Source: Phycisphaerae bacterium (GTDB taxonomy: Bacteria; Planctomycetota; Phycisphaerae; Phycisphaerales; UBA5793). Taken from it: a stretch of DNA of 64,000 nucleotides. Location: the NCBI GenBank assembly GCA_039794345.1, contig JBDIVQ010000002.1:6558-70557 (forward strand), in the 5' to 3' direction. The notes beneath the pieces were generated by a model. The model searched no databases. It was not told where the DNA came from and saw only the letters and a list, made by a program, of their open reading frames with translations. Made by a program: the position numbers and the translations under genes. Shown in pieces: positions 11,489-30,511 of this stretch (position 1 is the stretch's first letter; every line of letters starts with the position of its first letter).

Positions 11489-12006
11489 ACGTGGGCAGAC
11501 TGCTCGCCGAACTGGACCGCATGACCGGCACGGAACTGCGCCGACGGTACGCCGAGGTCTTCGGCGAGGAATCGCGGTCGGGCAACCGGCAGTGGCTCAT
11601 CCGCCGAATCGCGTGGCGGATGCAGGCAATCGAGGAAGGCGACCTGCCCGAGCGGGCACGCCAACGGGCGATGGAGATCGCCAACGACGCTGACCTGCGG
11701 ATTCACGCGCCGCCACGCGGCGGCATCGCCGGCTCGATTGCCCCCGGCGCGGCGGGCCGCACCGTTACCGCTTCGGCACCCCCCGGAGGTGACGGCCTGC
11801 CGATGCCCGGCGCGTGGCTGACGCGGGAATACAAAGGCCGCTTGATCCGCGTCCGAGTGCTGCTGCGGGGCTTCGAGTACGAGGGCGAGACTTACCGCTC
11901 ACTTTCGGCGATCGCCAAAGTCGTCACCGGCGCCCACTGGAACGGCAACCTCTTCTTCGGCGTCGGGTCGGCGGCGAAGATGCGCAGCAAGGCGGTGCGG
12001 TCATGA
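11479..12006 (+). CDS. DUF2924-family protein (recombinase-associated)
   Basis: LAELDRMTGTELRRRYAEVFGEESRSGNRQWLIRRIAWRMQAIEEGDL...YRSLSAIAKVVTGAHWNGNLFFG matches the DUF2924 pattern. It has an ATGA overlap with the recombinase gene. Confidence 0.75.
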   Translation: MGLNVGRLLAELDRMTGTELRRRYAEVFGEESRSGNRQWLIRRIAWRMQAIEEGDLPERARQRAMEIANDADLRIHAPPRGGIAGSIAPGAAGRTVTASAPPGGDGLPMPGAWLTREYKGRLIRVRVLLRGFEYEGETYRSLSAIAKVVTGAHWNGNLFFGVGSAAKMRSKAVRS

Positions 12007-13565
12007 ACCAACGCGCCAAGTCCAAGCCGCTCAACCGCTGCGCCATCTACACCCGCAAGAGCAGTGAGGAAGGACTCGACCAGGAGTTCAATAGCCTCGA
12101 CGCCCAGCGCGAGTCGGGCGAACTGTATGTCAAGAGTCAGGCGTCCGAGGGCTGGACCTGCCTGCCCGACCGCTACGACGACGGCGGGTTCACCGGCGGC
12201 AACATGGAACGGCCGGCGCTCAAGCGGCTCATGAAGGACATTGAGGCAGGCCGCGTGGACACGGTGGTGGTCTACAAGGTCGATCGCCTCAGCCGCTCAC
12301 TGCTCGACTTCGCACGGATGATGCAGGTATTCGAACAGCAAAGCGTCGCGTTCGTGAGCGTCACACAGTCGTTCAATACCAGCGACTCGATGGGCCGGCT
12401 CATGCTCAACGTGCTGCTCTCGTTTGCCCAGTTCGAACGCGAGATCATCAGCGAGCGCACCCGCGACAAGATGGCCGCAGCCCGCCGCAAGGGCAAATGG
12501 GTGGGAGGACGGCCGATCCTCGGCTACGACATCGAGCCCAACGGCTTCCGACTCATGGTCAACAAGCAGGAGGCCCAGCGGGTCCGTGAGATCTTCGCCC
12601 TCTACCTCAAGCACGAGTCGCTCATCCCCACGGTGCGCGTGCTCAACGAACGCGGCTGGCTGACCAAGCAGTGGACATCGCGCAAGGGCAAGTCGCTCGG
12701 CGGCCGCCCATTCGAGAAGGGCAGCCTCTACGCGCTGCTCACCAATGTGGCCTACACCGGCAAGGTCAAGTTCAAGGACGACATCTACGAGGGCGAGCAC
12801 GAGGGCATCATCGATGCCGAGGTCTGGCAGAAGGCGCAGCACCTGCTCACGCGTAACGGCCGCACCGGCGGCTCGATCGTGCGCAACAAGTATGGGGCGA
12901 TTCTGAAGGGTCTGGTCCACTGCACCGCGTGTCAGCGCACCATGGGCCACACTTATTCGAGCACGAAGGGCCGCGTTGCCTACCGCTACTACGTGTGCAA
13001 CGGCGCGGCCAAGCGCGGCTGGGATTCCTGCCCGTCCAAGTCGATCCCTGCCGGCGAGATCGAGCGCATCGTCGTCGAGCAGGTGCGGGCGATCGGCAAA
13101 GACCCAAGGCTCGTCGAGGCCACGCTCAAGCAGATGCGACGGCAGAGCGACGAGTCCGCCCAGGAACTGCTCAAGGAGCGGACAACCGTGGAACGCCTAC
13201 TTCGGCGACATCACGCCGAGGTGGGCCAACTCGCGGCCGACGCGGCCAACCGCAACGGCGGCACGGCGGCGCGCCTCGGCGACCTGCACGAACGCATCCG
13301 CACGGGCGAGGAGCGCCTGGCCGAGATCAAGTCGCAGTTGGCCACTCTGGAATCCAGCCGGATCGACGAGATTGCAGTGGCGCAGGCGCTCGCCGAGTTT
13401 GACGGCGTGTGGGAGAACCTCGCGCCCAAGGAGCAGGCCCGCGTTCTGCACCTGCTCATCGAGCGCGTTGACTACGACGGCGCCAAGGGCAAGGTGGCGA
13501 TCACGTTTCGGCCCAGCGGCCTGCGAGCGCTGCCGGGTTCGACTGGACGAGGGGAGGCGGCATGA
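12003..13565 (+). CDS. large serine recombinase (integrase)
   Basis: N-terminal resolvase motif CAIYTRKSSEEGLDQEFNSLDAQRE (catalytic Ser). This is followed by a recombinase domain, a zinc ribbon (CTACQRTMGH...YYVCNGAAKRGWDSCPSKSI) and a C-terminal coiled coil. Start is ATG 12003, inside track ORF 11814..13565. Confidence 0.9.
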   Translation: MNQRAKSKPLNRCAIYTRKSSEEGLDQEFNSLDAQRESGELYVKSQASEGWTCLPDRYDDGGFTGGNMERPALKRLMKDIEAGRVDTVVVYKVDRLSRSLLDFARMMQVFEQQSVAFVSVTQSFNTSDSMGRLMLNVLLSFAQFEREIISERTRDKMAAARRKGKWVGGRPILGYDIEPNGFRLMVNKQEAQRVREIFALYLKHESLIPTVRVLNERGWLTKQWTSRKGKSLGGRPFEKGSLYALLTNVAYTGKVKFKDDIYEGEHEGIIDAEVWQKAQHLLTRNGRTGGSIVRNKYGAILKGLVHCTACQRTMGHTYSSTKGRVAYRYYVCNGAAKRGWDSCPSKSIPAGEIERIVVEQVRAIGKDPRLVEATLKQMRRQSDESAQELLKERTTVERLLRRHHAEVGQLAADAANRNGGTAARLGDLHERIRTGEERLAEIKSQLATLESSRIDEIAVAQALAEFDGVWENLAPKEQARVLHLLIERVDYDGAKGKVAITFRPSGLRALPGSTGRGEAA

Positions 13566-16250: not shown

Positions 16251-16509
16251 AGCCGCACGGGGCTCGCTCGCCCCGATCAGGCATCGTGGCCGATCGCTGC
16301 GCGTCTGCTGCGCGAATGCTGCGCACGGCAGAAAGTTGTGTCGAGGGTTGCCTCGCAAGTGTTTATGATTGTGCGACTTGCGTTCAGTGTCTCTTTGCTG
16401 CGCATGCTGTTGAAATGTTGTAATTACGCGATGTTCTGTCGTCGTGCTTTCGCTTGCCCCAAACCGCGCATCGTGCGCGGCGATCCGTGCTGGATTTGGG
16501 GCGACAACC

Positions 16510-17067
16510 ATGCACTTCAACGGCCTCTTCGATTCCGCTACAACCGCGATCATCCTCGCTGCAGCCAGGTGGCTCTCCCGGCGACCCACGTTCACAGCGG
16601 CAGATGCTCCCGAACTCGCTCAGATCCTGGCGTGCCATCTCTGGCTGAAACGGGCACGGTTCGACCCACATCGCGGCGATTGGCCCACTTTCGCTCAGGT
16701 CGTCGTCGATCGGAGGGCCAAGTCCCTGCTTCGAGAGGCAAGGGCTGGGAAGCGACTGCCAAACCAACGTGTGCAATCTTTGCACCGCGAAGCGGCAGAT
16801 GAGAACGGTCGGCCGGTCGACCTGACTCAGAGCCTTCCTCACCCAACCAGCCGCGACGAAGTGAGACGTCGTGACCTGCAAATCGACATGCGCGAGTTGT
16901 CGCGGCTGGACCCGGCCGTCCGGCGCATGCTGGAGGAAGCCTGTCTCACCGGTCGGAAACCCACCCTGGCCCAGTTCAGACAGGCATCACGTCGCCTTGG
17001 CGACCGCGAGATTGCCCGTCTCCGCCAGCTCTTTGAGGACCAGGGACTTCGCGACTATCTCGCATGA
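16510..17067 (+). CDS. ECF-like sigma-70 family factor (divergent)
   Basis: Region-2-like ELAQILACHLWLKRARFDPHRGDWPTFAQVVVDRRAKSLLRE and region-4-like LSRLDPAVRRMLEEACLTGRKPTLAQF...IARLRQLFEDQGL. Start is ATG 16510. Confidence 0.5.
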   Translation: MHFNGLFDSATTAIILAAARWLSRRPTFTAADAPELAQILACHLWLKRARFDPHRGDWPTFAQVVVDRRAKSLLREARAGKRLPNQRVQSLHREAADENGRPVDLTQSLPHPTSRDEVRRRDLQIDMRELSRLDPAVRRMLEEACLTGRKPTLAQFRQASRRLGDREIARLRQLFEDQGLRDYLA

Positions 17068-17482: not shown

Positions 17483-17806
17483 ATGACGCGAGGCCGCTCC
17501 GCCAAAGCGAGTCGCCGATCAGGACGGGGAGTGCCCAGCGAAGCTCTCGCGAGCATCCGCAGTGCGCCGGCCGTGCCGCGCGATGATGACCACGACGCCG
17601 ATCTGCCGGGCTGCCTCGTCGAGCAGGTGCAGTTCGAGTCCGACGAGTTCTGGCGCGAGTGGAAGCGGGTGCAGCGGGCATCGGGACATCTCGTGCCAGT
17701 CCTGCTGACTCGGCGCAGACGCTCGAAGTGGCTCATCGTGTTTGCCGCCGAAGATTTTTTCGCTCTGCTCGCGGCGATCCGAGCTGCGGAGGACAAGCCG
17801 CAGTGA
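17483..17806 (+). CDS. hypothetical early protein
   Basis: Abuts the previous gene and has a GTGA overlap with the primase gene. C-terminal FESDEFWREWKRVQRASGHLVPVLLTRRRRSKWLIVFAAEDFFALL. Confidence 0.45.
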   Translation: MTRGRSAKASRRSGRGVPSEALASIRSAPAVPRDDDHDADLPGCLVEQVQFESDEFWREWKRVQRASGHLVPVLLTRRRRSKWLIVFAAEDFFALLAAIRAAEDKPQ

Positions 17807-19923
17807 GCGCGAAGCACACGACTCCGAACGGCGTTATCCACGCGGCAGCCTTGGCGGCAAGCGAGGCAGAATTGTGCGTGCTGCCGGCAGAGCGCGACGG
17901 CGATGAGAAGCGGGTTGCACTGCGAACATGGAAGGCATATCAGACGCAACGGCCTTCTGAGGACGACGTCGATCGCTGGTTCCGCAACCACGACGGGGCA
18001 ATGTGCATCGTCTGCGGTGGCATATCGGGCAACCTGGAGATCATTGACTTCGACGGCGGCGGCGAAGCGATGGCGCCGTGGAGTAGCGCTGTCGAAGCTA
18101 TCGCACCGGATCTTCTCAACCGTCTGGTGATCGAGTCCACGCCGTCAGGCGGTTGCCACATCGTCTACCGCTGTGCCGAACCGGTCGCCGGAAACACCAA
18201 ACTCGCGCAGCGGCGGATCGAAGTCGAATCAGGCGATCCCGTCGTCATCGGCGGCAAAGAGTTCGTTCCGCGTCAGGAGCCCTCAGGCGCGTGGGTCGTC
18301 ACGCCGGTCCTGATCGAAACCCGCGGCGAGGGCGGCCTGTTCCTGTGCGCACCCTCCGACGGCTACCGGCTCATCGTGGGTGACTTGTGCAACCCGCCGG
18401 TGATCACTGCTGAAGAGCGCGAGATTCTCCTCGACTGCGCCCGGGCGCTCGACGAGATGCCCAAGCCCATCGTCGGTGCGTCGCCCGTCAGACCGCGAGA
18501 CGCCGCCGGCCCACTGCGGCCTGGTGACGACTTCAATCAGCGCGGCGATCCGCGGCCCATTCTGATCAAACACGGCTGGACGCTCGTCGTACCCGGCGAG
18601 AACGAGCATTGGTGCCGGCCCGGCAAGTCCCGCGGCACGAGCGCGACACTCAAGAATGGGGTCTTCTACGTCTTCTCCACCAACGCCGCACCGTTTGAGG
18701 CCGAGAAGGGCTACTCCCCGTTCGCGGTCTACGCCATGCTCGAGCACAACGGAGATTTCACCCAGGCGGCAGCAGCCCTGCGCGCCGAGGGATACGGCAC
18801 TCCTCCATCAAGCGCGCCGCAGCAGAAGAGCCGCCCGCCCGGCGCTGAAACGCAGGGGCAAACAACGACGCTGGTCCACATCCCGCTCTCAGTTGGCGCC
18901 CTCGTCGATACGCACCCGCGCCTGCGTCTGCCCGTGGTCGAGAACCTGCTGCGTGAAGGCGAGACGCTGAACATCGTCGCCCCTTCGAAGACGGGCAAGT
19001 CCTGGCTCACGCTCGATTTCGCCATCGCGGTCGCCACCGGGAATCCGTGGCTGGACCGCTACGAGACCGTCGCCGGCGATGTCCTCATCATCGACAACGA
19101 GCTGCACCCGGAAACGAGCGCCAACCGCATCCCCAAGGTTGCGCAGGCACGCGGCATCGCGATGGAGCGGATCAGGAACCACATCTTCGTCGAAAACCTG
19201 CGCGGCCGGTTGCAGGACATCTTCGGGCTTGAACCGTACTTCGCGGTCATTCCGCCACGGCGGTACAAGATCATCATCCTCGATGCGTTCTACCGCTTCA
19301 TGCCCGTCGGCGGCGATGAGAACGACAACGGGACGATGGCCAACATCTACAACGTAATCGATCGCTATGCCGCCCTCCTTGGCTGCTGCTTCGTGATGAT
19401 CCACCACTCGACGAAGGGCAACCAGTCCGGCAAGTCGGTCACAGATGTGGGGGCCGGCGCCGGCGCGCAGAGCCGGGCGGCGGATGCCCACCTCGTGTTG
19501 CGACCGCATGAAGAGCCGGGAGTGGTCGTGCTCGATGCGGCCGTGCGATCCTGGGCGCCCATCGAGCCAGTCTGCCTTCGCTGGTCGTTCCCGGTCTGGA
19601 ACGTGGATGAGTCGCTCGACCCGGCGAACCTCCGTAAGGAACGACCCGCGAAGCGCAAAGAGGAGAAGCCGTCTGAACCAATGACGGAGCCGCAGTGGAC
19701 CGTGGAGATGTTTGCAGAGGAGTTCTTCGGGCGCGAGCCCCTGAGCAAGGCGGAGATTCGCGTTGCAACGCAGGGCAGACCTGGCCTGTCCTGGCGCAAG
19801 ACCAATGACCTGCTGGAGATCGCCGAGAAGCGCGGACTCGTGCATCGATGGACCGTTGGGAAGTCGCACAAGGTGGTGTATTCGACCCAGTCGCAGCCAC
19901 TCTACGGGGAGGATGGACCATGA
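17803..19923 (+). CDS. bifunctional primase-polymerase (Prim-Pol) fused to a RepA/AAA_25-like helicase ATPase
   Basis: Prim-Pol-like N-terminus (KRVALRTWKAYQTQRPSEDDVDRWF...MCIVCGGISGNLEIIDFD...ESTPSGGCHIVYRC). C-terminal Walker A (NIVAPSKTGKSWLTLD) and Walker B (GDVLIIDNE). The GTG start at 17803 is inferred. Confidence 0.8.
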   Translation: MSAKHTTPNGVIHAAALAASEAELCVLPAERDGDEKRVALRTWKAYQTQRPSEDDVDRWFRNHDGAMCIVCGGISGNLEIIDFDGGGEAMAPWSSAVEAIAPDLLNRLVIESTPSGGCHIVYRCAEPVAGNTKLAQRRIEVESGDPVVIGGKEFVPRQEPSGAWVVTPVLIETRGEGGLFLCAPSDGYRLIVGDLCNPPVITAEEREILLDCARALDEMPKPIVGASPVRPRDAAGPLRPGDDFNQRGDPRPILIKHGWTLVVPGENEHWCRPGKSRGTSATLKNGVFYVFSTNAAPFEAEKGYSPFAVYAMLEHNGDFTQAAAALRAEGYGTPPSSAPQQKSRPPGAETQGQTTTLVHIPLSVGALVDTHPRLRLPVVENLLREGETLNIVAPSKTGKSWLTLDFAIAVATGNPWLDRYETVAGDVLIIDNELHPETSANRIPKVAQARGIAMERIRNHIFVENLRGRLQDIFGLEPYFAVIPPRRYKIIILDAFYRFMPVGGDENDNGTMANIYNVIDRYAALLGCCFVMIHHSTKGNQSGKSVTDVGAGAGAQSRAADAHLVLRPHEEPGVVVLDAAVRSWAPIEPVCLRWSFPVWNVDESLDPANLRKERPAKRKEEKPSEPMTEPQWTVEMFAEEFFGREPLSKAEIRVATQGRPGLSWRKTNDLLEIAEKRGLVHRWTVGKSHKVVYSTQSQPLYGEDGP

Positions 19924-19947
19924 ATGTCTGGTCGCCAGTTCGTCGTT

Positions 19948-20139
19948 TTCGCTCGTGCGCGCGCTCGCTGAAGCGCTTCGGCGAAGCGCTCAAGCGAAGG
20001 AAGCGCTCAAGCGAAGACCGGTTCGAGGGCTTCGCTCGTGCGCGCGCGCACCCCCCCATACCCCCCCGGGGCGTGCGCTCGAGCGACGCCCCGGGGTTTC
20101 GCTCGTGCGCGCGCGCTCCAGCGAAGCGCTCAAGCGAAG
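19948..20139. repeat. GC-rich direct-repeat and palindrome block
   Basis: ttcgctcgtgcgcgcgc occurs 3 times (19948, 20031, 20098). gaagcgctcaagcgaag occurs 3 times (19983, 20000, 20123). A 33-bp inverted repeat, CCCCGGGGCGT...ACGCCCCGGGG, lies at 20064..20096. Confidence 0.85.
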
Positions 20140-20288
20140 AAAGCGATCCCACACACTTGGCCGCCCTCGCGGGTATCGCGACCACGAGTCCGCCGGCGGA
20201 AATGAGCACACAGCCCATGACAGAACTGACAATACCGACGACACCGATCGCAGCCTCTGTGGATCACCGTTGCCGCGCCCGCAGCGCG

Positions 20289-20475
20289 GTTCTGTCAGTT
20301 CTGTCGGAACGGCGGGTTTTGTCAGTTGTGTCAGGAGTCGCGAGCGTGGAGGATTTGTCGGTTCTGTCAGTTCTGTCATCGCGGCACATCGCGGCGGATC
20401 ATCGGTTTCGTCAGTTCTGTCAGTTTCGTCATCGATGTATGTTGGCGCGGAGCGTGGGTTTTGTCAGTTATGTCA
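20289..20475. repeat. iteron array (candidate replication origin)
   Basis: Twelve copies of the 9-mer GTTCTGTCA and variants, in five clusters of 2-3 tandem units (20289, 20316, 20353, 20405, 20458). They lie between the primase/helicase gene and a double winged-helix ORF. Confidence 0.7.
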
Positions 20476-20608
20476 AAGCGATCAATGGTTCCCCCCTGAA
20501 AAGTGCGGCAATTCAGCGACGCGGGAACAGCAGCGAAACCACACTGACACAAGATAACGCGCCCCTGTCCGACTTCTTGGATTGGCGCGCGGCGCGGAGG
20601 GTTGCGAC

Positions 20609-21979
20609 ATGAGCGCAAGTGTTGATGACACCTTGGTTTGCCGCCTGGCCGGCGAGTTGTGGGCGGTGTTCGCCCCATGGCGCGGGCCGTGGAGCGGCGG
20701 TGGCGCGACGATGGCGTATCTGGCTCGGCGGTCGTTTCGGTCCGGCGCGGGTCTGCGATGGCGGCATGCCGGGCGCGATCGGGATGAGCGGGATGAGAAT
20801 GTGGAAGCGCTGGGCCGGCTTGAGCGGCGTGGGCTGCTCACGCGCCGCGTCGAGAAGACGAAGGTGATCGCCACCAGACTGCTCGACGCCGGGATCGAGC
20901 GGGCGTGCTCATTGGCCGGCGCGCCGTGCTGGTCCGAGGGCCGGGCCGTCTGCGAGCGCCTTGCCGCCATCGATGATGACGCGGCCACGATGACGCACCT
21001 TGGCACCCGGTGGACCGCGGAGTGGGCGTTGGCGGGCACGCCGCCGCATTGGGGCCAGTGCGGCAACGACGAGACCGGGCGCGCCAATCGCTCGCTTCTG
21101 TCTGTTCTTGAAGGGCGGGCGGTTCCTGCGCTGGTGCGCGGGTGGCTCATCAGCGGGGCCGATCTGCATGGGCGGGTGTGGTACGCACTCACCGCCGCCG
21201 GTCGCGCGGCGCTGACGGAAGCGCCGGCCGAAGCGCCATCGGAGATCGAAGGCGACAAGGACTGCGCGCTGGCTTGGCGCGAGGGGGCCCACGCCATGCA
21301 AGTCCGCCTCGCCGCGGCGCCACGCTCGGAGCGCGAGATCGGCCTGCTGCCATTGCCGGTCCACGGCGGGCCGAACGTGGGCGGCGACGTTGGCGCACGT
21401 GGCGATGTGCCCACGGTGGGCGGCCGAGGAGGCAACCTCGCCGCACATCTCGCAACAGGGGGCAACGTCGGCGGCGATGAAACCGCGAGTGGCCGCCCGT
21501 CGGCGGAACTAGGTCGCGATGGCCTACGCGCGCTTAGTCGCGGCAATGACCTCGCCCAGGTTCGCGATCTCCGCGCGGAGGTTGGCGACCTCCTCGTGAA
21601 GCGCGGCGAGTTCCGGGAGGACGAGATCGCGGATGGCCCGGCGGGTGTTCAGGCTGGTCGCGACGATGTTTTGGAAGCGGCACCGGGTCTCGTTCCTGCA
21701 GTCGGACAACTCTCGTCCATTGCGAGTGAACTCCGTCGCGACACCGTCCGCGTCGATTCGGAACCCGTCCCGCTTCAGTATCCTCGCGGCTGGCTTGCGG
21801 ATGGGAAAGGCAGCGATCACTGTCCCGTCGTGCAGCGAAGCGGCGTGGTAGTGCATCTTCCGTCGCCGTGGTCGCCTCATCAATCACCTCCATCTGCTTT
21901 CCGGCCGCCGCCTGCGGCCGCGACCGAGGACAGCATGTCCGCTCACCCGGTCTGTCAACATTTGAGGAGTCCACAATGA
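20609..21979 (+). CDS. hypothetical protein with two winged-helix-like segments (candidate iteron-binding initiator); 3' end uncertain
   Basis: ATG 20609 has GGAGGG upstream. ALGRLERRGLLTRRVEKTKVIATRLLDAG and LSVLEGRAVPALVRGWLISGADLHGRVWYALTAAGRAAL look like winged-helix units. The frame stays open to 21979 and ends in an ATGA overlap with the methylase. Third-position GC drops after about 21520, where a convergent ORF is also open. Confidence 0.5.
   Translation: MSASVDDTLVCRLAGELWAVFAPWRGPWSGGGATMAYLARRSFRSGAGLRWRHAGRDRDERDENVEALGRLERRGLLTRRVEKTKVIATRLLDAGIERACSLAGAPCWSEGRAVCERLAAIDDDAATMTHLGTRWTAEWALAGTPPHWGQCGNDETGRANRSLLSVLEGRAVPALVRGWLISGADLHGRVWYALTAAGRAALTEAPAEAPSEIEGDKDCALAWREGAHAMQVRLAAAPRSEREIGLLPLPVHGGPNVGGDVGARGDVPTVGGRGGNLAAHLATGGNVGGDETASGRPSAELGRDGLRALSRGNDLAQVRDLRAEVGDLLVKRGEFREDEIADGPAGVQAGRDDVLEAAPGLVPAVGQLSSIASELRRDTVRVDSEPVPLQYPRGWLADGKGSDHCPVVQRSGVVVHLPSPWSPHQSPPSAFRPPPAAATEDSMSAHPVCQHLRSPQ
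21524..21856 (-). CDS. hypothetical protein with a C-terminal coiled coil (alternative to the 3' end of ORF 20609..21979)
   Basis: MHYHAASLHDGTVIAAFPIRKPAARILKRDGFRIDADGV...LVLPELAALHEEVANLRAEIANLGEVIAATKRA is protein-like. By eye, its third codon positions are more GC-rich than those of the overlapping + frame. Confidence 0.35.
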   Translation of the reverse strand: MHYHAASLHDGTVIAAFPIRKPAARILKRDGFRIDADGVATEFTRNGRELSDCRNETRCRFQNIVATSLNTRRAIRDLVLPELAALHEEVANLRAEIANLGEVIAATKRA

Positions 21980-23385
21980 AAGTCGAACTGCGGCCGGTGG
22001 CTGAGATCAGACCCTACGAGAAGAACCCTCGCCTCAACGACAATGCCGTTGCGGCGGTGGCCAACAGCATCCAGGCGTTCGGCTGGCGGCAGCCGATCGT
22101 GGTCGATGGCGAGGGCGTGATCATCTGCGGGCACACAAGATGGAAAGCGGCGCAGCGCCTCGGGCTGGAGAAGGTGCCGGTCCATGTCGCGACCGATCTC
22201 ACGCCCGAGCAGGTGCGGGCGTATCGCATCGCCGACAACAAGAGCGGCGAACTGGCGGAGTGGAACATGGAACTGCTGCCGCTGGAGATGGCCGAACTCC
22301 AGGGCGCCGGCATCGACTGGTCGAGCCTTGGCTTCAGCGCCGACGATCTGGCGAAGATCTTCGATCCCGGCGTGCAGGATGGTCTGACCGATCCGGATGC
22401 GATTCCCGAACCGCCCGATGAGCCGATCACGAAACGCGGCGACCTGTGGATTCTCGGCGAGCACCGTCTGCTCTGCGGCGACAGCGCGAGCGCGCAGGAT
22501 GTCGATCGATTGCTTGACGGCCAGCCGATCCATCTGGTCAACACGGATCCGCCATACAACGTGAAGGTCGAGCCGCGCAGCAACAACGCGATCGCGGCGG
22601 GTGTGACTTCGTTCGCGCGGCGGGCCGATCTCCAGTGCGAGCGCTCGACCACAGAGCGCGGCAAGAAGGACCGTGAACGCAAGGCCAAGCGCACGCATCA
22701 CCAGAGTTTCGACGTCGCCCGCCAGGGGGAGAAGAAGCGCACGACGAAGAAGATGCGCGCCAAGGACCGGCCGCTGGAGAATGACTTCGTCAGCGAGGAG
22801 GCGTTCGAGGAGATGCTCGATGCGTGGTTCGGCAACATGGCGCGCGTCCTCATCCCCGGCGGCGGCTTCTACATCTGGGGCGGCTACGCGAACCTCGGCA
22901 ACTACCCGGGTCCGTTGAAGCGTGCTGGTCTGTACTTCAGCCAGGGGATCATCTGGGACAAACAGCATCCGGTGCTCACCCGCAAGGACTACATGGGCGC
23001 GTTCGAGATCGCGTACTACGGCTGGAAGTTGGGCGCAGCGCACCGGTTCTTCGGACCCAACAACGTGTCCGACCTCTGGCATGTGAAGAAGGTGAACCCG
23101 GCGTCAATGTGTCATTTGACTGAGAAGCCGGTCGAGTTGGCCGTGCGGGCCATGCAGTACTCATCGCGCGTCGGCGAGAATGTGCTTGATCTCTTTGGGG
23201 GATCGGGTTCGACTCTGATCGCCGCCGAGCAGACCGGGCGCCGTGCGTACCTGATGGAGATCGATCCGGCCTACTGCGATGTCATCGTCGATCGATACCA
23301 GCGATTCTCAGGCAAGCCCGCCGTGCTTGAAGGCACGGGCGAGTCGCCGATCCCGATGAAGCCGCGCGAGGAGAAGATGCGGTGA
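21976..23385 (+). CDS. ParB-like nuclease domain fused to a DNA methyltransferase (N6-A/N4-C type)
   Basis: N-terminal ParB-N (IRPYEKNPRLNDNAVAAVANSIQAFGWRQPIVVDGEGVIICGHTRWKAA). Catalytic DPPY (LVNTDPPYNVKV). AdoMet site (VLDLFGGSGSTLIAAEQTGRRAYLMEID). Confidence 0.88.
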   Translation: MKVELRPVAEIRPYEKNPRLNDNAVAAVANSIQAFGWRQPIVVDGEGVIICGHTRWKAAQRLGLEKVPVHVATDLTPEQVRAYRIADNKSGELAEWNMELLPLEMAELQGAGIDWSSLGFSADDLAKIFDPGVQDGLTDPDAIPEPPDEPITKRGDLWILGEHRLLCGDSASAQDVDRLLDGQPIHLVNTDPPYNVKVEPRSNNAIAAGVTSFARRADLQCERSTTERGKKDRERKAKRTHHQSFDVARQGEKKRTTKKMRAKDRPLENDFVSEEAFEEMLDAWFGNMARVLIPGGGFYIWGGYANLGNYPGPLKRAGLYFSQGIIWDKQHPVLTRKDYMGAFEIAYYGWKLGAAHRFFGPNNVSDLWHVKKVNPASMCHLTEKPVELAVRAMQYSSRVGENVLDLFGGSGSTLIAAEQTGRRAYLMEIDPAYCDVIVDRYQRFSGKPAVLEGTGESPIPMKPREEKMR

Positions 23386-23447
23386 TCGGTTGTGACGTGA
23401 ACTATGTGTCTGGTGGCGGGCCGGGGCGTGCAATGAACCCACCCGGT

Positions 23448-23870
23448 TCACACGAGTTCGCCGAGCGCCAGCACTCGATCGGCGTACGGCCCGCTGCGCA
23501 GCGCGTTGACCAGCCGCTGATCAGCGGTGACCGCCCGGACCTTCTCCCGCGCGGCCAGGCAGATGTAGAGACTGTCGTAGACGGTGCGGTCTGTCTCGAC
23601 GGCGAATCGAACCGCGTCCGGAAGCAGTGGAAGGGACTCGACGATCTCCACCGGATAGGCGGACAAGTCGCTCGCCATCTGCTCAGCTTCCTCGGCGGAA
23701 AGGTCGCCGCGCCGAACGGCCTTCCACGTCACGGCTGCGACCTCGATCCACAGCAGGTCTGGAGCGATGAGCCGGTACGATTCGCTCAGCAGTTCGCGGG
23801 CCTGCGGCGAGCCGGTCTCGGGAATGAGCCACTTCAGCGCCACGCTGGCATCCACGACGAGCGTCTTCAC
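23448..23870 (-). CDS. vapC: PIN-domain toxin VapC
   Basis: VKTLVVDASVALKWLIPE...YRLIAPDLLWIEVAAV...TVYDSLYICLAAR carries the PIN acidic residues. The GTG start has a GTGA overlap with the upstream antitoxin. Confidence 0.8.
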   Translation of the reverse strand: MKTLVVDASVALKWLIPETGSPQARELLSESYRLIAPDLLWIEVAAVTWKAVRRGDLSAEEAEQMASDLSAYPVEIVESLPLLPDAVRFAVETDRTVYDSLYICLAAREKVRAVTADQRLVNALRSGPYADRVLALGELV

Positions 23871-24247
23871 CGCTGTCGTTCCTCGCGGAGCAGTTCGGTC
23901 GAGTCGGGCAGGCGGCGTCCCTTGAGCCGCTCGTGCCACGCGTCGGTGATGGCGCGGGCCTCGTCGAAGTTGCGATGGGCATCGCGCCGCAGCGCCATGT
24001 GCAGTTCCTGCTGGAGCGAACGGCCGGAGCGCCGGGCCCGATCCTTGAGCACCTCCAGAACATCGGGCGCGACGTCGCGGAGCAGGAGGTTGGCGGACTC
24101 AGCCTGCTTTCTCGAAGCAGCCCCGTTGCCTGACATGGCTTTGGGTGCGCCGCCGCTCTTGACCTTCCGGCTGGGAGAACCGGCGGACGTGCGCTTGGTG
24201 GAACGGCCGCTGCGGCCGGTCTTGGCTCGGGTTCGACGGGTGGTCAT
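23867..24247 (-). CDS. vapB: RHH antitoxin (VapB/FitA-like) with a basic N-terminal extension
   Basis: ANLLLRDVAPDVLEVLKDRARRSGRSLQQELHMALRRD is a ribbon-helix-helix motif. An alternative start at ATG 24136 would remove the K/R/S-rich extension. Confidence 0.7.
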   Translation of the reverse strand: MTTRRTRAKTGRSGRSTKRTSAGSPSRKVKSGGAPKAMSGNGAASRKQAESANLLLRDVAPDVLEVLKDRARRSGRSLQQELHMALRRDAHRNFDEARAITDAWHERLKGRRLPDSTELLREERQR

Positions 24248-24386
24248 GCCCGATGATATCGGTCTGATACCGGCTCGGCAATGCCGCCGGCTCTCGTGCT
24301 GCCCGGCGGCGCCTTGGATCGACTGCCGCAGACACAGCCGCGGCGGCTGGCGCTGCGGCCGTGAATGGTGGAGGCGAGTTGGCGGG

Positions 24387-24809
24387 CTACTCGGCGGTTG
24401 GTGGCGCTCCGGGCGCGCTCGGGTCGCCCGCCTCTTCCGGCCCCTTCTCGCGCAGGGCGTGGTACTCGATCATGGCGTCCTCGTAGACGAAGTCGCTCGC
24501 GGCGATGTGCTTGCGGTTGCGCGCGGGCACGATGCACGACCGCTCCTTGAGGAACGCGATGGCCACCGCCACCTGCGACCACGGCGGCATGTTCGCTTCG
24601 TCGCCGTCGCCCACCTTCGCCCGCACGTCCTCCATCGTGAACGACGCGTTGCCGAGTTGTTCGATGGCGTAGGCGACGTCGTCGTAGACCTGCTTGGTGC
24701 AGGCGTGCTCGTAGGGCGTGCCGCGCCTGGGCACGACGCGGCGCAGCAGCGCGCCGCTCGGGCCATCGACGATGAAAGTCTCATCGAGTTGCTGCGGCAT
24801 TGGCATCAC
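24387..24809 (-). CDS. hypothetical protein
   Basis: Protein-like composition (FIVDGPSGALLRRVVPRRGTPYEHACTKQVYDDVAYAIEQLG...). Belongs to a co-directional minus-strand block. Confidence 0.5.
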   Translation of the reverse strand: MMPMPQQLDETFIVDGPSGALLRRVVPRRGTPYEHACTKQVYDDVAYAIEQLGNASFTMEDVRAKVGDGDEANMPPWSQVAVAIAFLKERSCIVPARNRKHIAASDFVYEDAMIEYHALREKGPEEAGDPSAPGAPPTAE

Positions 24810-24975
24810 CTCCTTCCCGCTTCGTGCGCGGCGGCGAGTAGACGTTCAGGCAGGTGGCGCAGCGGACGCGCTGGCCGTCCTCGATCCAGACGAGGCGGTC
24901 AATGCATCGCTCCGCACAGCGCGGGCATGCGTCCTCGATGGCGACGTGGTAGTCGCTGTTGGCGGCGGCCGTCAT
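24781..24975 (-). CDS. small zinc-ribbon protein
   Basis: MTAAANSDYHVAIEDACPRCAERCIDRLVWIEDGQRVRCATCLNVY has two CxxC pairs. Start is the internal ATG at 24975 of track ORF 24781..25203. Confidence 0.5.
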   Translation of the reverse strand: MTAAANSDYHVAIEDACPRCAERCIDRLVWIEDGQRVRCATCLNVYSPPRTKREGGDANAAATR

Positions 24976-25196
24976 GGTTCCATCTCCTCGCGCGGCTCGA
25001 TGAGATCGAAGATCGCCACCACCGCGAGCATGCCCACCAGCAGCGCGGCGCGTTCGTCGAGGCCGGCGAGATCGCCCCGGGCGCAGGTGCGGATGAGCGC
25101 GGCCTTGTCGCTTGCGGGGATGGCGGCCAGCGTGTCGCGCATCGTGGCGCGAGTCTGGTCGGCATGGGCGAGGAGTCGTTGAACTTCCCGGTCCAT
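24972..25196 (-). CDS. small hypothetical protein
   Basis: 74 aa, overlaps the next gene by 4 nt. MDREVQRLLAHADQTRATMRDTLAAIPASDKAALIR... Confidence 0.4.
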   Translation of the reverse strand: MDREVQRLLAHADQTRATMRDTLAAIPASDKAALIRTCARGDLAGLDERAALLVGMLAVVAIFDLIEPREEMEP

Positions 25197-25199
25197 CGA

Positions 25200-26285
25200 T
25201 CACGCTCCTTTCCCGGCCGCCGTGAAGCGGCCCTTGTCGACCTTGGCGAAGCGCGCTTCCTTGCCCTTGGCGGCGATCTCGCGGATCATCGCCGCGTACA
25301 AGGTCGCGTGCGGCGTGGCGCCGTTGGTCTTCCAGCCCGCGGCGATGGCGCGCTCGGCGATCGTCTTGGCGTCGAGGGGTTCCTTGGCTCGGCCCAGCAC
25401 CTGCGCGGCGGCGTCGAGGCCGCTCAAGCCCTCGCGCTTCTTGCGCGGCTTGGCCTCGGCCTTGCCGTCGGTGGTCTTGCTCGTCGCGCCACCGGCGCGA
25501 GCCTTAGGTGCGCCGCGATCGGGCGGCATGGTGATGCCCAGTTGCGCCGGCGTCTTGCCGGTGAGCTGCTTGATCGACTGCTTGATGTGGAAGACGCCGG
25601 TGACATTTCCCGAGGCGTTCACCTCGCGGCAGCCGGTCTTCTCATCGATAGGCGAGTCGGCGGGCACCCGGTAGAGCAGCGGCGTGCGGCCGTCGATGCG
25701 GAAGAAGAGCTCGTAGAGTTTGCCGTTGCGCTTCCAGCACACATGGTTGCGGCTGGTCGGCAGGTTCTCGACCTGCTTGGCGATCTCGGCGTGGTCGCCC
25801 TTGTTGACCAGCGCGATGCGTGGCGGCGTGCGCCGGCCCTTGCGCTTTGGCGTGGTCGAGGTCGCTGGTGCCGGCGTCGTGCCTTGCTGGGCTGCCGCCT
25901 GCTCGGCCTTCTTCACCCAGCGCGAGCGTTCCTTGCCGTTGATGATCTCGGTGTGCATGACCAGACCCTTGGCGGCGGCCTTCGCGTCGCGCTCGGCGAT
26001 GCGCTCAGCATCCCTGTCAACAACGCGGCCCCCGGGTTTCACGCCGGAGGCCGGTCTGGCATCCTTGTTGTCGCTGCCCTTGGGAGGCGGCGGCGTCGCG
26101 GGCTTGGGCGGCCCGACTTCACTGCGGAGGCGTTGAGCGCTCTTGATCCGCACCTTCTTCTTCGTGCCCAGGTTCGTCGCGTCCCAGCCGCCGTGGCGGC
26201 TCTCGGCGTCGATGCGCACCTTGGCGATCTTGCCGCTCACCTTCGCGGTGTAGGTGCTTCCGATCTTGACCTCGTTCTTCTTCAT
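25200..26285 (-). CDS. DNA-binding protein with a C-terminal HARE-HTH-like domain
   Basis: C-terminal [68 protein letters not shown] resembles HARE-HTH. Basic, low-complexity linkers. Confidence 0.6.
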
Positions 26286-26357
26286 CGTGCTGCTCCTTTC
26301 GTGGTTGCAGCGGTTGGTGAATGTGCGACGGTGACCTTCACCGCCGCGCGTCGTTCA

Positions 26358-26594
26358 TCAGTTCGTTCTCGCCACCGGCGTGATCTCGACCGTGCGCCCG
26401 CACGCGGGGCACACCGCCTTGGTCGGCCGCGCTGCCTGCCGCCCGGCCTCGTAGGCCCGCTCCAGCGCGTCTTTGATGCACCAGACGGCGGTGTCGTGGA
26501 AGTCGAGGCTGTCGCGCTTGCGGGTTTCCAAGGTCTCAAGGCCGAGGGCCTCGCGGGCGATCGTGCTCAGTGTGTTGTCTCGCGTCGTGCTCAT
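26358..26594 (-). CDS. hypothetical protein
   Basis: 78 aa. LGLETLETRKRDSLDFHDTAVWCIKDALERAYEAGRQAA...CPACGRTVEI. Confidence 0.45.
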   Translation of the reverse strand: MSTTRDNTLSTIAREALGLETLETRKRDSLDFHDTAVWCIKDALERAYEAGRQAARPTKAVCPACGRTVEITPVARTN

Positions 26595-26621
26595 GGCGTC
26601 TCCGTTTCGCGTGGTGGTCGT

Positions 26622-26876
26622 TCAGCAGCCCGCGATGCGTTCGATCTCGGTTTGCACGGCGTGGATCATCGAGTTGGTGGCGGCCGCGCGGCCCTTACGG
26701 TCGACGCCGTAGATCGCCATCGCCGCCGCCCGCGCTGCGGCCCAGCGCTCCTCGTCGCTGCTATGGCGCGGCAGTTCGATGCACGTCTGCCCGAAGAGAA
26801 TCTGCGCTCCGTAGTCGGCGTCTCGAATCTCGACGTCGCCCTCGACGCCCTTGATGGTCATTCGTGTGATGGTCAT
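26622..26876 (-). CDS. hypothetical protein
   Basis: 84 aa with protein-like composition (MTITRMTIKGVEGDVEIRDADYGAQILFGQTCIELPRHSSDEERW...). Confidence 0.45.
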   Translation of the reverse strand: MTITRMTIKGVEGDVEIRDADYGAQILFGQTCIELPRHSSDEERWAAARAAAMAIYGVDRKGRAAATNSMIHAVQTEIERIAGC

Positions 26877-26918
26877 GGTGGTGGTCCCTTCCCGCGTGGT
26901 CGCGGTTGGTGGTGCGTT

Positions 26919-27389
26919 TCAGATCGTGGTGACATTGGCGACGAGCATGCAGGCGCGAATCACCGCGTCGAGTTCGCCGCGCTGACCCGCGTCGATCTCG
27001 TCGAGGCTCTTCTCGAAGATGCGCTCGGCCAGCGCCCGCCGCGTGTTGTCGATGTCGATGGGCTGGAGGCTGTAGGTCGGTGCGTAGTTGTCGCCGACCG
27101 AGACATTCGCGCTGCCAGTCTTGTAGGCGGTCAGGCCGTTCTCAAAGTCGTGCTCGGCGAAGGCGTGGACCTGCCTGCGAACCGAGTTGATCTCGATGTA
27201 AAGGTTGCTGATCCGCACGCCGGCGTGGATCACCGGCGACTTGCCGTTGGCGTGGTCGCGATCCCAGAAGGCGAGGATCTCCTCGTCGGTGTAGCCTTTG
27301 CGCCGCAGGTGGTCGAGGTCGCTGACCGAGTGCATCGGGTGCTCGCGCAGGCGTGTGCTCAGGTCGTTCTTCTTCGATTGCTTCGTCAT
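26919..27389 (-). CDS. hypothetical protein (first gene of the minus-strand block)
   Basis: Start is the internal ATG at 27389. MTKQSKKNDLSTRLREHPMHSVSDLDHLRRKGYTDEEILAFWDRDHANGKSPVIHAG... Confidence 0.5.
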   Translation of the reverse strand: MTKQSKKNDLSTRLREHPMHSVSDLDHLRRKGYTDEEILAFWDRDHANGKSPVIHAGVRISNLYIEINSVRRQVHAFAEHDFENGLTAYKTGSANVSVGDNYAPTYSLQPIDIDNTRRALAERIFEKSLDEIDAGQRGELDAVIRACMLVANVTTI

Positions 27390-27690
27390 GGTGTTGGCTC
27401 CTTTCGCCGTTGTTCGCGGGCGGCGTACTCCGCCTCGCATTGCACACATGAGGGCATGAACAGCGCGACAATGCAAGGGCAATTGCCGAGGATTCCAGCA
27501 CATTTCGCAGATTGTGGGGAAGTGCCGATCAATGTGGGGAACCTCGCCGCCGACAGCGCGCCATGTGCTAGGAATCTGCTAGGCCGGGCCGAACATCGCG
27601 CCGTGTTGGCCCACGTTGGGCCGCGCTCGCGGGTGGTACAACGCCTCGACTCGCGCGCGCCAGGCGCGACGTGCGCTACGGAGGGCCGCC

Positions 27691-27945
27691 GTGCCTACGC
27701 CGCGTGACGACCAGCCCGATCGCCCGGGCGGCCTCAACCCGGCCGCTCTATCGGTGACCGACACGGCGCGGCTGTTGACGCGCGTCGGCGGTCAGGCGAT
27801 CAGCGAGGCGATGATCGAGCGCGACATCGACGACGGCGCGCCGACCAATGGCGACGGCACGATCAATCTGGTGCATTTCGCCGCGTGGCTCGTGCGCGAC
27901 ATGGCCGAACGCGGCAGCCCCGGTGGAGGCGATCGTGGCGATTGA
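27691..27945 (+). CDS. candidate terminase small subunit (HTH)
   Basis: GTG 27691 has GGAGGG 6 nt upstream. LSVTDTARLLTRVGGQAISEAMIERDID...INLVHFAAWLV. Lies directly upstream of and overlapping the large terminase. Confidence 0.45.
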   Translation: MPTPRDDQPDRPGGLNPAALSVTDTARLLTRVGGQAISEAMIERDIDDGAPTNGDGTINLVHFAAWLVRDMAERGSPGGGDRGD

Positions 27946-30232
27946 CCCGCGCAGCCTCAAGCCCGGCGAACTCTGCCGCCTGCTCAACTCGACTCCGCTG
28001 GGGGAGGTAATCGGCGAGCGGCAACTCCACCGCCACCGCACCCGCGCCGGCTATCGCATCGGCGACGGGAAGACTGTCGATCTGCTCCGCTACACCGCGT
28101 GGCTGGTCATCGAGCGCCACGAACGGCTCAGTGCGGACGAGTCCACCGAGGATGAGTCGTTCGATGAGGTCGTGCGGCGCGACCGCGACCTGCCAGACTC
28201 TTTCACCGGCCGGGACATCGACGCCCTCCCTGAAATCATCAATCCGGCCCGCAAGGAAGCGTGCCGCCGCAACTTCCGCCTCTTCTGCGAGACCTACTTC
28301 CCGCAGACATTCCACCTCGCGTGGTCGCCCGACCACCTCAAGGTCATCGCAAGGATCGAGCAGGCCGTCCTCGAAGGCGGTCTCTTCGCGATGGCCATGC
28401 CGCGCGGCAGCGGCAAAACGTCCATGTGCGAGATCGCCTGCCTCTGGGCTCTGCTCTATGGCCACCGCGAGTTCATCGCCCTCATCGGCTCGGATGAAGA
28501 GCACGCGGGCCAGATGCTCGAATCGATCAAGGCCGAACTGGAGAACAACGAGGCCCTCCTCGAAGACTTCTCCGAGGCGTGCTTTCCGATCCACTGTCTC
28601 GACGGCATCCACCAGCGCGCCGCCGGGCAACTCTTCGAGGGCAACCAGACGCACATTGGATGGACGGCCCACGAGATCGTTCTGCCCTCGGTGCCGCGCT
28701 CACTCGCATCCGGCGGCATCATCCGCGTCGCCGGCATCACCGGCCGTATCCGCGGCATGAAGTACAAACGCCCCGATGGTCGCAGCGTCCGCCCCTCGCT
28801 GGTCCTCATCGATGATCCGCAGACCGACGAATCAGCGCGATCGCCCTCGCAGTGCGCCACCCGCGAACGCATCCTCGCCGGCGCCATCCTCGGTCTGGCC
28901 GGCCCAGGCCGCAAGATCGCCGGCCTCATGACACTCACGGTCGTGCGCCCCGACGACCTGGCGGACCGTCTGCTCGATCGCGATAGGCACCCGCAGTGGC
29001 AGGGGCAGCGCACGAAGATGGTCTACTCCTTCCCGAGCCGCGAGCAGCTGTGGGCGGAGTACGCGCGGCTGCGGGCCGAGGGACTGCGCGCCGACGCCGG
29101 GATCACCCGCGCCACCGAGTTCTACGGCGAGAACCGTGCCGAGATGGATGATGGCGCCGAGGTCGCGTGGCCGGACCGGTTCAACCATGATGAACTCAGC
29201 GCTGTCCAGCATGCGATGAACCTGCGGCTTCAGGATGAGGCCGCATTCTGGGCTGAGTATCAGAACGAGCCATTGCCCGAGAGCACCGCACTCGACGAGG
29301 ATCTGCTCACTGCCGAGCAGATCTGCGCCAAAGTGAACGGCCACGGGCGTGGCGAGGTGCCCATCGGTTCATCATTGCTGACCATGTTCATCGACGTGCA
29401 GGCCAAGGCGCTCTTCTGGCTCGTGGTGGCCTGGGAAGAGGATTTCACCGGCAACGTGATCGACTACGGCACCGAGCCGGACCAGAAGGACCCCCACGCG
29501 TACTTCACACTCCGCGACATCCGCCGCACACTCGCGGCCGCTTCGCCACGCGCGGGTCTCGAAGGTGCGGTCTACGCCGGGCTGGAGCGCCTCACCGATG
29601 CGATGCTCGGCCGAGAATGGAAACGCGATGACGGCGCCATGGTGCGCATCGACCGCTGCCTGATCGACGCCAACTGGGGCCAGTCGTCGGATGTCGTCTA
29701 CCAGTTCTGCCGCCAGAGCAGGCACGCCAACCTCGTCCTGCCCAGCCACGGCCGGTACGTCGGCGCTTCGAGCATTCCCTTCAGCGAGTACAAACGCAAG
29801 CGAGGCGACCGCGTCGGCCTGAACTGGCGCATCCCCGTCATCACTGGCAAGCGTGCCGTGCGCCACGTCGTCTTCGACACCAACTACTGGAAGTCATTCG
29901 TGCACGCTCGGCTGGCGGTGCCGATGGGCGATCCGGGATGTCTCTCGCTGTTCGGGCGCACCGGCGGGCCATCGAATCGCACCGCGACCAACCACCAACT
30001 CCTCGCCGAGCACCTCACGAGCGAGTACCGCGTGAAGACGCAGGGCCGGGGCCGGACCGTCGATGAGTGGAAACTCCGCGTGGACGGCCTCGACAACCAC
30101 TGGCTCGACTGCCTGGTCGGCTGCGCCGTCGCCGCGTCGATGCACGGCGCCGTCCTCTACGGCACCGACACGCGGCCCGCGCCGCGCCGCCGTATCCGCC
30201 TCTCCGAACTCCAGGGAGGGAGGCGGCGATGA
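27935..30232 (+). CDS. terminase large subunit (GpA-like)
   Basis: Walker A (GLFAMAMPRGSGKTSMCEIA) and Walker B (SLVLIDDPQTDESA), with a C-terminal nuclease-like region. The GTG 27935 start (GGAGG upstream) is preferred over ATG 27848 because the first 29 aa of the track ORF look out of frame. Confidence 0.85.
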   Translation: MAIDPRSLKPGELCRLLNSTPLGEVIGERQLHRHRTRAGYRIGDGKTVDLLRYTAWLVIERHERLSADESTEDESFDEVVRRDRDLPDSFTGRDIDALPEIINPARKEACRRNFRLFCETYFPQTFHLAWSPDHLKVIARIEQAVLEGGLFAMAMPRGSGKTSMCEIACLWALLYGHREFIALIGSDEEHAGQMLESIKAELENNEALLEDFSEACFPIHCLDGIHQRAAGQLFEGNQTHIGWTAHEIVLPSVPRSLASGGIIRVAGITGRIRGMKYKRPDGRSVRPSLVLIDDPQTDESARSPSQCATRERILAGAILGLAGPGRKIAGLMTLTVVRPDDLADRLLDRDRHPQWQGQRTKMVYSFPSREQLWAEYARLRAEGLRADAGITRATEFYGENRAEMDDGAEVAWPDRFNHDELSAVQHAMNLRLQDEAAFWAEYQNEPLPESTALDEDLLTAEQICAKVNGHGRGEVPIGSSLLTMFIDVQAKALFWLVVAWEEDFTGNVIDYGTEPDQKDPHAYFTLRDIRRTLAAASPRAGLEGAVYAGLERLTDAMLGREWKRDDGAMVRIDRCLIDANWGQSSDVVYQFCRQSRHANLVLPSHGRYVGASSIPFSEYKRKRGDRVGLNWRIPVITGKRAVRHVVFDTNYWKSFVHARLAVPMGDPGCLSLFGRTGGPSNRTATNHQLLAEHLTSEYRVKTQGRGRTVDEWKLRVDGLDNHWLDCLVGCAVAASMHGAVLYGTDTRPAPRRRIRLSELQGGRRR

Positions 30233-30423: not shown

Positions 30424-30511
30424 GGGACTAATCCTCTTGCAATCCCGCACAAAACCCGTTACACTCACCCAGCCTGCTTTTCACTTGCGCTGGCCCGCAA
30501 GGAGAGACGCC

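Follow-up and report, generated by a model that had tools for sequence, protein, structure and literature searches.

In the 64,000-nucleotide stretch of a Phycisphaerales (Planctomycetota) genome analysed here, referred to as the window, a prophage carries a gene for a primase-helicase protein that is followed by two modules of short repeats, by a conserved leader and by an open reading frame (ORF) that starts at position 20609 and is named ORF 20609 here. We suggest that the region from 19.9 to 20.5 kb is likely the origin of replication of a cassette headed by the primase-helicase gene and, with somewhat less conviction, we favor a model in which the second repeat module, an array of 9-mers, is a distal and lineage-specific block of the putative origin region of this helicase and does not belong to the gene downstream. 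The preliminary description of this DNA had interpreted the 9-mers together with ORF 20609 as a plasmid-style replication origin inside the prophage; our comparison of related loci supports iteron-like sites in the origin region but not the assignment of ORF 20609 as a Rep-like initiator.

The repeat modules downstream of the primase-helicase gene

We use the label X for the repeat module next to the helicase gene and Y for the 9-mer array, which includes the twelve direct units listed below.

17803..19923, plus strand: replication gene encoding Prim-Pol, helicase and C-terminal winged-helix domains (Pfam, PDB, PHROG, AlphaFold, Foldseek)
19935..20148: module X, starting 12 bp past the helicase stop codon (repeat families and inverted pairs)
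20218..20244, minus strand: three inverted 9-mer units, TGACAGAAC TGACAATAC CGACGACAC (inverted-repeat analysis)
20289..20475, plus strand: module Y, twelve direct 9-mers with the consensus GTTnYGTCR in clusters of 2, 2, 3, 3 and 2
20289: Y cluster 1, GTTCTGTCA GTTCTGTCG
20316: Y cluster 2, GTTTTGTCA GTTGTGTCA
20352: Y cluster 3, GATTTGTCG GTTCTGTCA GTTCTGTCA
20405: Y cluster 4, GTTTCGTCA GTTCTGTCA GTTTCGTCA
20458: Y cluster 5, GTTTTGTCA GTTATGTCA
20480..20608, plus strand: promoter-like leader in front of ORF 20609
20609..21979, plus strand: ORF 20609, 456 amino acids (aa) in the window, with a core of aa 1-250 (20609-21358) and a low-complexity tail

About 45 related loci, given by L numbers, were compared in all: 24 genome loci with a homologue of ORF 20609 were fetched, and loci identified via the helicase and via remote relatives of the ORF were added.

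The replication protein consists of a pRN1-type Prim-Pol domain, followed by an RSF1010 RepA-like hexameric helicase domain (AAA_25) and by a winged helix. The latter comprises about the last 72 aa (roughly 19705-19920) and is confidently predicted: in the AlphaFold model three helices are followed by a beta hairpin with a predicted local distance difference test (pLDDT) score above 90, and in Foldseek this segment matches the winged helices of BlaI, Fur and MarR with a probability of about 1.0.

Module X contains at least nine copies of the 14-mer GCGCTCAAGCGAAG (complement CTTCGCTCGTGCGC) in both orientations, and these copies flank a conserved GC-rich core with the structure GCGCGCAC-C7-ATA-C7-GGGGCGTGCGCTCGAGCGACGCCCCGGGG at about 20040-20096, in which GGGGCGTGCGC is found after the second C7 run. 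X holds a strong palindrome, and its fold z-score as single-stranded DNA is -5.5. The core is kept after the related helicase genes of L014, L021, L025, L026, L036, L038, L040, L043, L044 and L045, and X is conserved among helicase relatives down to about 56% identity. Within the clade of the window helicase, the core is constant and the arms of X vary along with the recognition helix or the wing of the winged helix: (i) arms of the GCGCTCAAGCGAAG type are found with the winged helix of the window type (window, L014, L036, L038, L040, L043 and L044), (ii) arms with GAACTCGAAGCGC are found in L021 and L045, which have a wing variant of the winged helix, and (iii) arms with GAGAG/CTCTC are found in L025 and L042. 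In L010 the arms are AAACGAAAC. Such co-variation would follow if X is read by the winged helix, and we suggest that X is probably the true origin core.

The twelve direct 9-mers of Y in five clusters of two to three units, as given in the preliminary description, were confirmed by the sequence and a table of the units; the three inverted units, which lie 44 bp upstream of the direct array, had been overlooked. GTTYTGTCR has 9 matches in the window compared to 1.8 expected, and 9 matches were reached in 0 shuffles; similarly, the degenerate unit has 12 matches within 200 bp compared to at most 3 in 200 block shuffles. The variable bases are always those at unit positions 4 and 5. The gaps separating the clusters are 9, 18, 26 and 26 nt long so that a register of approximately 9 bp is held throughout, and from one start to the next the last three clusters are spaced by 53 bp, a phasing that corresponds to five helical turns. 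The array had been placed immediately after the helicase gene and immediately before ORF 20609. It starts, however, 366 bp past the stop codon at 19923 with X lying in between, and it does neighbor the ORF, but a conserved leader of 130 bp separates it from the ATG at 20609. A search for DnaA boxes gave a single 8/9 match, TGATCCACA at 20258-20266 on the minus strand between the inverted and the direct 9-mers, which does not exceed chance for the window and has no counterpart in L014 or L025.

Y arrays were found in four other variants from Phycisphaerales prophages, i.e. in L014 (10 direct units), in L036, in L038 (14 units), and in L025/L042 (10 units); an exact search of IMG/VR for the array gave no match. 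Between the window and L014, the units are 89% identical and the spacers 65%. Unit numbers differ among the variants only by insertions or deletions whose lengths are roughly multiples of 9. The last three clusters are separated by two gaps that measure 26-27 nt in every variant, the first of which varies in sequence. The first 24 nt of the inverted units are the same in L014, L036 and L038, and L025/L042 likewise have three inverted units. Because the units are more conserved than the spacers and the gaps between the last clusters are fixed, selection acts on the DNA sites of Y and on their spacing. Very likely Y is a non-coding binding array.

Exchange of helicase-origin cassettes among related prophages

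In all of the 24 genome loci and of the additional metagenome loci for which upstream sequence is available, a primase/helicase gene of 700-1000 aa ends 270-1260 bp upstream of the homologue of ORF 20609 or of the methyltransferase gene that follows it, and each of these loci has its own family of iterons in the intergenic space after the helicase gene. The iterons mostly point both ways and surround an AT-rich stretch together with a GCGCGC stretch. They fall into at least eight classes (TCCGTCAC, CTTCTTTC, GGTGAAAC, GTGAAGGA, CTGTCGCGACAG/CGTCACGACGG, AAACGAAAC, GCGCAACAGG and the X type). Which iteron class a locus has is predicted by the last 150 aa of its helicase: members of one class are at least 68% identical in this segment, whereas the median across classes is 23%, and the high values across classes come only from visibly related motifs. 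On the basis of these sequence comparisons, we suggest that related prophages swap the helicase gene and its origin as a single cassette.

The prophages form a multi-copy family with three to six members per genome (KLAP200 5, PLA1 6, PE_seawater30 4), and co-resident members share the module of ORF, methyltransferase and terminase and differ in the helicase-origin cassette. Co-residence thus provides a setting for incompatibility or competition. These comparisons define a prophage family of the little-studied Planctomycetota in which helicase-plus-origin cassettes with at least eight iteron specificities are swapped, and the set of cassettes represents natural data for learning how the recognition helices and wings of winged helices read DNA. 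The source genome of PLA1 is labelled Vicinamibacteraceae, which is probably a binning or labelling error.

Y shows a distribution unlike that of X. It is present in the window, L014, L036/37, L038/39 and L025/L042, in which the helicases are 77-82% identical to that of the window, and it is found only and always after such helicases where contigs extend far enough; L014 is the only one of the 24 genome loci that shares GTTCTGTCA with the window. When every ORF of the window between 13.5 and 27.8 kb was compared with all loci by tblastn, only the helicase subclade proved exclusive to loci with Y, and the 107-aa, 121-aa and sigma-like proteins as well as those of the minus-strand cluster are all shared with loci that lack Y. 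Y is therefore an insertion of about 340 bp, confined to this subclade, that separates X from the leader.

The analysis shows how the repeats are built, that they are non-coding and selected as DNA, that the cassettes co-vary, that the winged-helix fold is present and that the ORF is dispensable; origin activity, the binding partners and the role of Y are inferred. Combining the repeat anatomy with the distribution of the cassettes, we propose that the protein with Prim-Pol, helicase and winged-helix domains functions as its own self-loading initiator, in the manner of the Rep protein of Staphylococcus aureus pathogenicity islands (SaPIs) and of the alpha protein of P4. In this model, (i) the winged helix would bind the 14-mers of X, which face both ways and lie just past the 3' end of the helicase gene, (ii) hexamers would assemble on or melt the adjacent GC-rich core of X, (iii) the Prim-Pol domain would prime synthesis, and (iv) the helicase gene and the origin would travel together as one cassette. 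Y, with its inverted-plus-direct layout, 9-bp register and five-turn phasing, would most likely nucleate a cooperative nucleoprotein complex, which may assist or limit initiation or may control the adjacent leader. Whether Y itself acts in replication rather than in the control of transcription is close to evenly balanced in our judgement. The identification of the reader of Y would show whether origins of this type have a second licensing or regulatory layer.

Several points weigh against this model. The center of X in the window is 80% GC, with only ATA between the two C7 runs, and X has no AT-rich stretch for unwinding, whereas the sister cassettes L004, L006, L012, L013 and L020 have AT-rich centers. 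Moreover, Y occurs with two types of winged helix, that of the window and that of L025, and is absent from L043 and L044 despite their winged helix of the window type; therefore, Y is not read by the winged helix. The reader of Y is not specifically ORF 20609 either, and within about 10 kb no other protein exclusive to loci with Y was found. The link between Y and the helicase subclade could thus be one of plain physical linkage, and Y might have another function such as transcription control of the leader.

The genes surrounding the cassette are as follows.

11476-13565: DUF2924 and serine recombinase
16444-17067: ECF-like sigma factor
17483-17806: small 107-aa gene with a GC content at third codon positions (GC3) of 0.76 and homologues in nearly all related loci
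21524..21883, minus strand: window-specific 119-aa ORF with a GC3 of 0.82 within an insertion
about 21970-23385: ParB_N-N6/N4 methyltransferase, after ORF 20609
25200-26285, minus strand: HARE-HTH protein of the minus-strand cluster (GC3 0.8-0.9)
27848-30232: gpA-type terminase, followed by lambda-type portal, capsid and cement proteins

The database start of the replication gene is the ATG at 17803, giving a protein of 706 aa (P0040). A longer helicase ORF from the GTG at 17659 is over-extended; it overlaps the separate 107-aa gene, and in the overlap GC3 favors the latter, whose end also overlaps the database start at 17803. The replication protein matches PF09250 and PF13481 in Pfam, primase/helicase families in PHROG and, among PDB sequences, RepA (1G8Y, E 6e-11) and ORF904 of pRN1. 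The helicase has more than 2,000 homologues. IMG/VR holds only two helicase relatives, both remote, matches to plasmids in PLSDB and phages in INPHARED are confined to single domains with at most 34% identity, and the identity to IncQ-type RepA genes is 26-28%. No DNA similarity of the window to sequenced phages was found, and a literature search on Phycisphaerae prophages returned nothing relevant. Some helicase homologues are approximately 1020 aa long (L021 6638-9703, L018 2125-5187; P0097, P0099, P0145 and P0148), and several of the long homologues carry LAGLIDADG or Hint domains within the helicase, which are therefore inteins that invade this replication gene family.

Two further observations concern the late part of the region. 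The 1441-aa plus-strand ORF at 23382-27707 is antisense to the well-supported minus-strand cluster and is almost certainly spurious. Between the terminase and portal genes, 30437-32275 encodes a Trypsin_2 protease fused to eight Sel1 repeats, which looks like a moron, i.e. an accessory gene.

Alternative functions of the 9-mer array and the role of ORF 20609

An alternative, which we consider possible but unlikely, is that Y is a transcriptional control element, i.e. an operator, an upstream activating array or a roadblock, for the leader and the operon behind it, and the primase-helicase, ORF 20609 or another regulator could be its reader. The leader is conserved over 110-130 bp in nearly all loci, either before the ORF homologue or directly before the gene for the ParB_N-methyltransferase, and it contains GCGGGAACAGC at 20521-20531, which is identical in all but one of approximately 30 copies of the leader (e.g. 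L021 11049 and L050 about 370). The complementary GGTTCCC or GGTACTTCCC lies about 33 nt upstream of GCGGGAACAGC, and GACA, ATAACGCG and TGTCCG are conserved downstream. In favor of this alternative, Y ends approximately 10 bp before the conserved part of the leader, which starts with the ATGG at 20485, and Y is an add-on, as relatives with the same winged helix and module X lack it. Contiguous short repeats are typical of cooperative repressor binding, as in the case of omega of pSM19035.

The spacing GGAAC-N17-GAC in the leader recalls promoters of ECF sigma factors, and the element encodes an ECF-like sigma factor; the leader could equally be an RNA element. Searches of the interval 19.7-20.8 kb gave no match in Rfam at E ≤1 and nothing useful in terms of sigma-70 promoters or terminators. 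The absence of a sigma-70 promoter in this interval argues against the transcriptional alternative, as does the finding that no regulator co-occurring with the array was identified and that the leader works without the array in most loci.

The proposal that ORF 20609 is a double-winged-helix initiator similar to RepE and pi, which acts on the 9-mers to drive theta replication and allows the element to persist as a phage-plasmid, is highly improbable in light of the comparison. Its structural premise was borne out: the AlphaFold model of ORF 20609 (pLDDT 84, pTM 0.83) has two winged helices (H58-73/E77-91 and H155-177/E180-194). In addition, the ORF lies 133 bp downstream of the array, it is present in every locus with 9-mers, and remote homologues are also located just after primase-helicase genes. 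The relationship between the ORF and the iterons is nevertheless not that of an initiator and its sites. The window ORF has 83-89% identity to ORFs that lie beside six other, unrelated iteron classes, whereas its identity to the ORF of L014, a locus with the same 9-mers, is only 74%, and no residues specific to loci with 9-mers were found in the ORF. Furthermore, no homologue of the ORF was detected by tblastn in L043, L044, L045, L026 and L027, all five of which have a related helicase, with module X being present in L026 and in L043-L045; in L043, L044 and L045 (helicase about 64% identical) the helicase gene, X and the leader are followed directly by the gene for the ParB_N-methyltransferase. 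Because the ORF does not predict the iteron class and relatives lack the ORF, it is neither the specificity partner of the iterons nor required by the replicon. It is the leader, and not the iterons, that is conserved together with the ORF.

Nor does ORF 20609 resemble known initiators beyond its tandem winged helices. No match was found in Pfam, PHROGs, NCBIfam or PDB sequences, and a profile of the 39 close homologues retrieved nothing from PDB sequences up to E=10. In Foldseek searches of PDB and BFVD no match reached E ≤0.001 and none in PDB had E <0.1, the lists of the 50 top fold matches in the two databases contain no solved plasmid initiator (RepE, pi or RepA), and among the BFVD matches with a replication-initiator annotation the best one has an E value of 0.24 and a TM score of 0.24. 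The weak top matches are to generic multi-winged-helix proteins such as AlkZ, MukE, ScpB and RPC62. Those of the 39 close homologues that have a source name are all from Phycisphaerales or Phycisphaeraceae genomes. A profile search retrieved 470 remote clusters of about 250 aa; 56 remote relatives have only weak matches to PadR or DUF6293 winged helices and no family was assigned. Among the remote relatives, that of L047 follows a Prim-Pol/D5_N helicase without an intergenic array before it, and that of L050 follows an origin with ACCGTCCGA iterons and the same GGGAACAGC leader.

ORF 20609 is best described as the optional first gene of a conserved module that continues with the ParB_N-methyltransferase and, further downstream, the terminase, and a reasonable guess is that it encodes a putative DNA-binding regulator. 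Its homologues are about 313 aa long with a conserved core of about 250 aa. The end of the ORF had been set at 21520, but in the window it runs to 21979. A window-specific insertion of approximately 420 bp (21550-21970) lies between the ORF core and the start of the methyltransferase gene; it removed the usual stop codon, so that ORF 20609 reads on to 456 aa as opposed to approximately 313, whereas in other loci the ORF abuts the methyltransferase gene. The 119-aa ORF at 21524-21883 has no homologue in any related locus and is not part of the origin.

The suggestion that the element persists as a phage-plasmid found no support. In the window, no ParA, ParM or ParR-type gene was found, and all copies with enough flanking sequence are integrated, sitting between host genes next to DUF2924 and the serine recombinase. 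In total, iterons beside a gene for a protein with two winged helices do not make a plasmid replicon in this case, and the initial reading is corrected accordingly.

It is also very doubtful that Y serves as an iteron sponge or as an incompatibility or handcuffing array that is not read by the initiator of the prophage itself. In that case its 13-17 sites with a CTGTC core could titrate the initiator of a rival or throttle the replication of the element itself; Y shares only this CTGTC core with the iterons of another class (CTGTCAC or CTGTCGCGACAG; L007, L015 and L024). If true, Y would be the natural equivalent of an engineered system, the "phage-encoded resistance" origins of dairy phages.

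We attach still less weight to the idea that Y is a centromere-like partition site of the ParR/omega type, to which a ribbon-helix-helix protein would bind. The layout of Y, with 9-bp units set end to end in phased clusters, fits such a site, and an ORF with a ribbon-helix-helix domain is present at 23867-24247; this ORF, however, is window-specific with no homologue in the other loci with the array, no gene for the motor, ParA or ParM, was found in the window, and the copies that are sufficiently flanked are chromosomally integrated.

Finally, that the repeats code for a portion of a genuine protein, either the 254-aa ORF at 19848-20612 or a 131-aa ORF from the ATG at 20217, has next to no probability, even though the region is open in that frame in all variants, some annotation pipelines call genes there (L037 12117-12815, L038 12118-12903 and L042 6457-7131) and an AGGAG-like motif precedes the ATG in L014, L036 and L038. 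Two to three plus-strand frames are open at once over the same approximately 250 codons in every variant, and ahead of the array the window and L014/L036 do not use the same reading frame. Over the repeat region, the GC contents at codon positions 1, 2 and 3 are approximately 0.48, 0.57 and 0.63, unlike those of real genes here; the units occupy all three codon phases whichever frame is read and keep one consensus; and a comparison of the window with L014 over the 72 nt after the putative ATG shows 4, 3 and 5 substitutions at the first, second and third codon positions, an even distribution. The ORF through the repeat region had no family match in a PHROGs search. On the strength of the multiple open frames, the unconserved frame, the GC3 that is not gene-like and the phase-independent consensus, the coding explanation was rejected. 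The preliminary description had named translation of the repeats in homologues as a finding that would speak against its proposal; gene calls occur in homologues, but their frame is not conserved.

Comparison with known replication systems

The closest parallels are provided by the pri-rep-ori cassettes of SaPIs and other phage-inducible chromosomal islands and by the rep-ori cassette of P4. In SaPIs, the winged-helix domain of Rep binds 6-12 iterons immediately downstream of rep, whose orientation is reversed from one side of a central region to the other, and a given Rep recognizes only the iterons of its own origin (PMC9371898). The Phycisphaerales cassettes similarly encode a helicase with a C-terminal winged helix, which we infer to be the initiator, and a primase that is fused or adjacent; bidirectional iterons lie just 3' of the helicase gene, with X starting 12 bp past the stop codon and its arms co-varying with the winged helix, and every sister cassette has the same layout. 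Iterons that match their cognate winged helix were found for X and for the family as a whole, but not for Y. The two systems differ in that SaPI Rep is a superfamily 3 (SF3)/AAA+ helicase, whereas the helicase here is RSF1010 RepA-like (AAA_25) and the primase is of the Prim-Pol type (archaeo-eukaryotic primase, AEP), in that the center of X is GC-rich (C7-ATA-C7) and not AT-rich, and in that a second, unrelated array of 12 direct 9-mers is present that does not follow the winged helix.

In the alpha protein of P4, primase, helicase and a C-terminal winged-helix origin binder are combined in one polypeptide and 8-bp iterons adjoin the gene; ori and crr of P4 carry the same iteron, which is read by one domain. 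The window resembles P4 in having a single polypeptide with primase, helicase and winged helix and short iterons beside its gene. It differs in that its two repeat modules differ in sequence, and the protein families are different, P4 having a DnaG-like/TOPRIM primase and an SF3 helicase.

The helicase domain itself is homologous to RepA of the IncQ plasmid RSF1010, which also has an iteron-based origin. In RSF1010, however, the initiator RepC and the primase are separate proteins and the iterons are 20 bp long, whereas the corresponding activities appear to be fused here; a RepC-like protein was not found. With the Rep proteins of iteron plasmids and P1 (RepE, pi, RepA of pPS10 or P1), the likeness is confined to a neighboring ORF with two winged helices: ORF 20609 has no sequence or fold relationship to these proteins, it does not co-vary with the iterons and the replicon dispenses with it. 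The clustered auxiliary iterons of Y recall incA of P1.

By analogy, we suggest that the putative function of the replication gene in the window is of the class represented by SaPI Rep and P4 alpha and that the gene is not a homologous member of this class, because its helicase domain matches RSF1010 RepA (AAA_25) and not SF3 helicases. A practical rule follows for origins in metagenomic prophages of this type, i.e. to look just 3' of the primase-helicase gene. A rep-ori cassette of phages and satellites in which iterons lie 3' of the gene for a helicase-initiator is already known; the present one departs from it in its helicase, which is RepA-like rather than SF3, in its GC-rich core and in having an additional array that does not depend on the winged helix.

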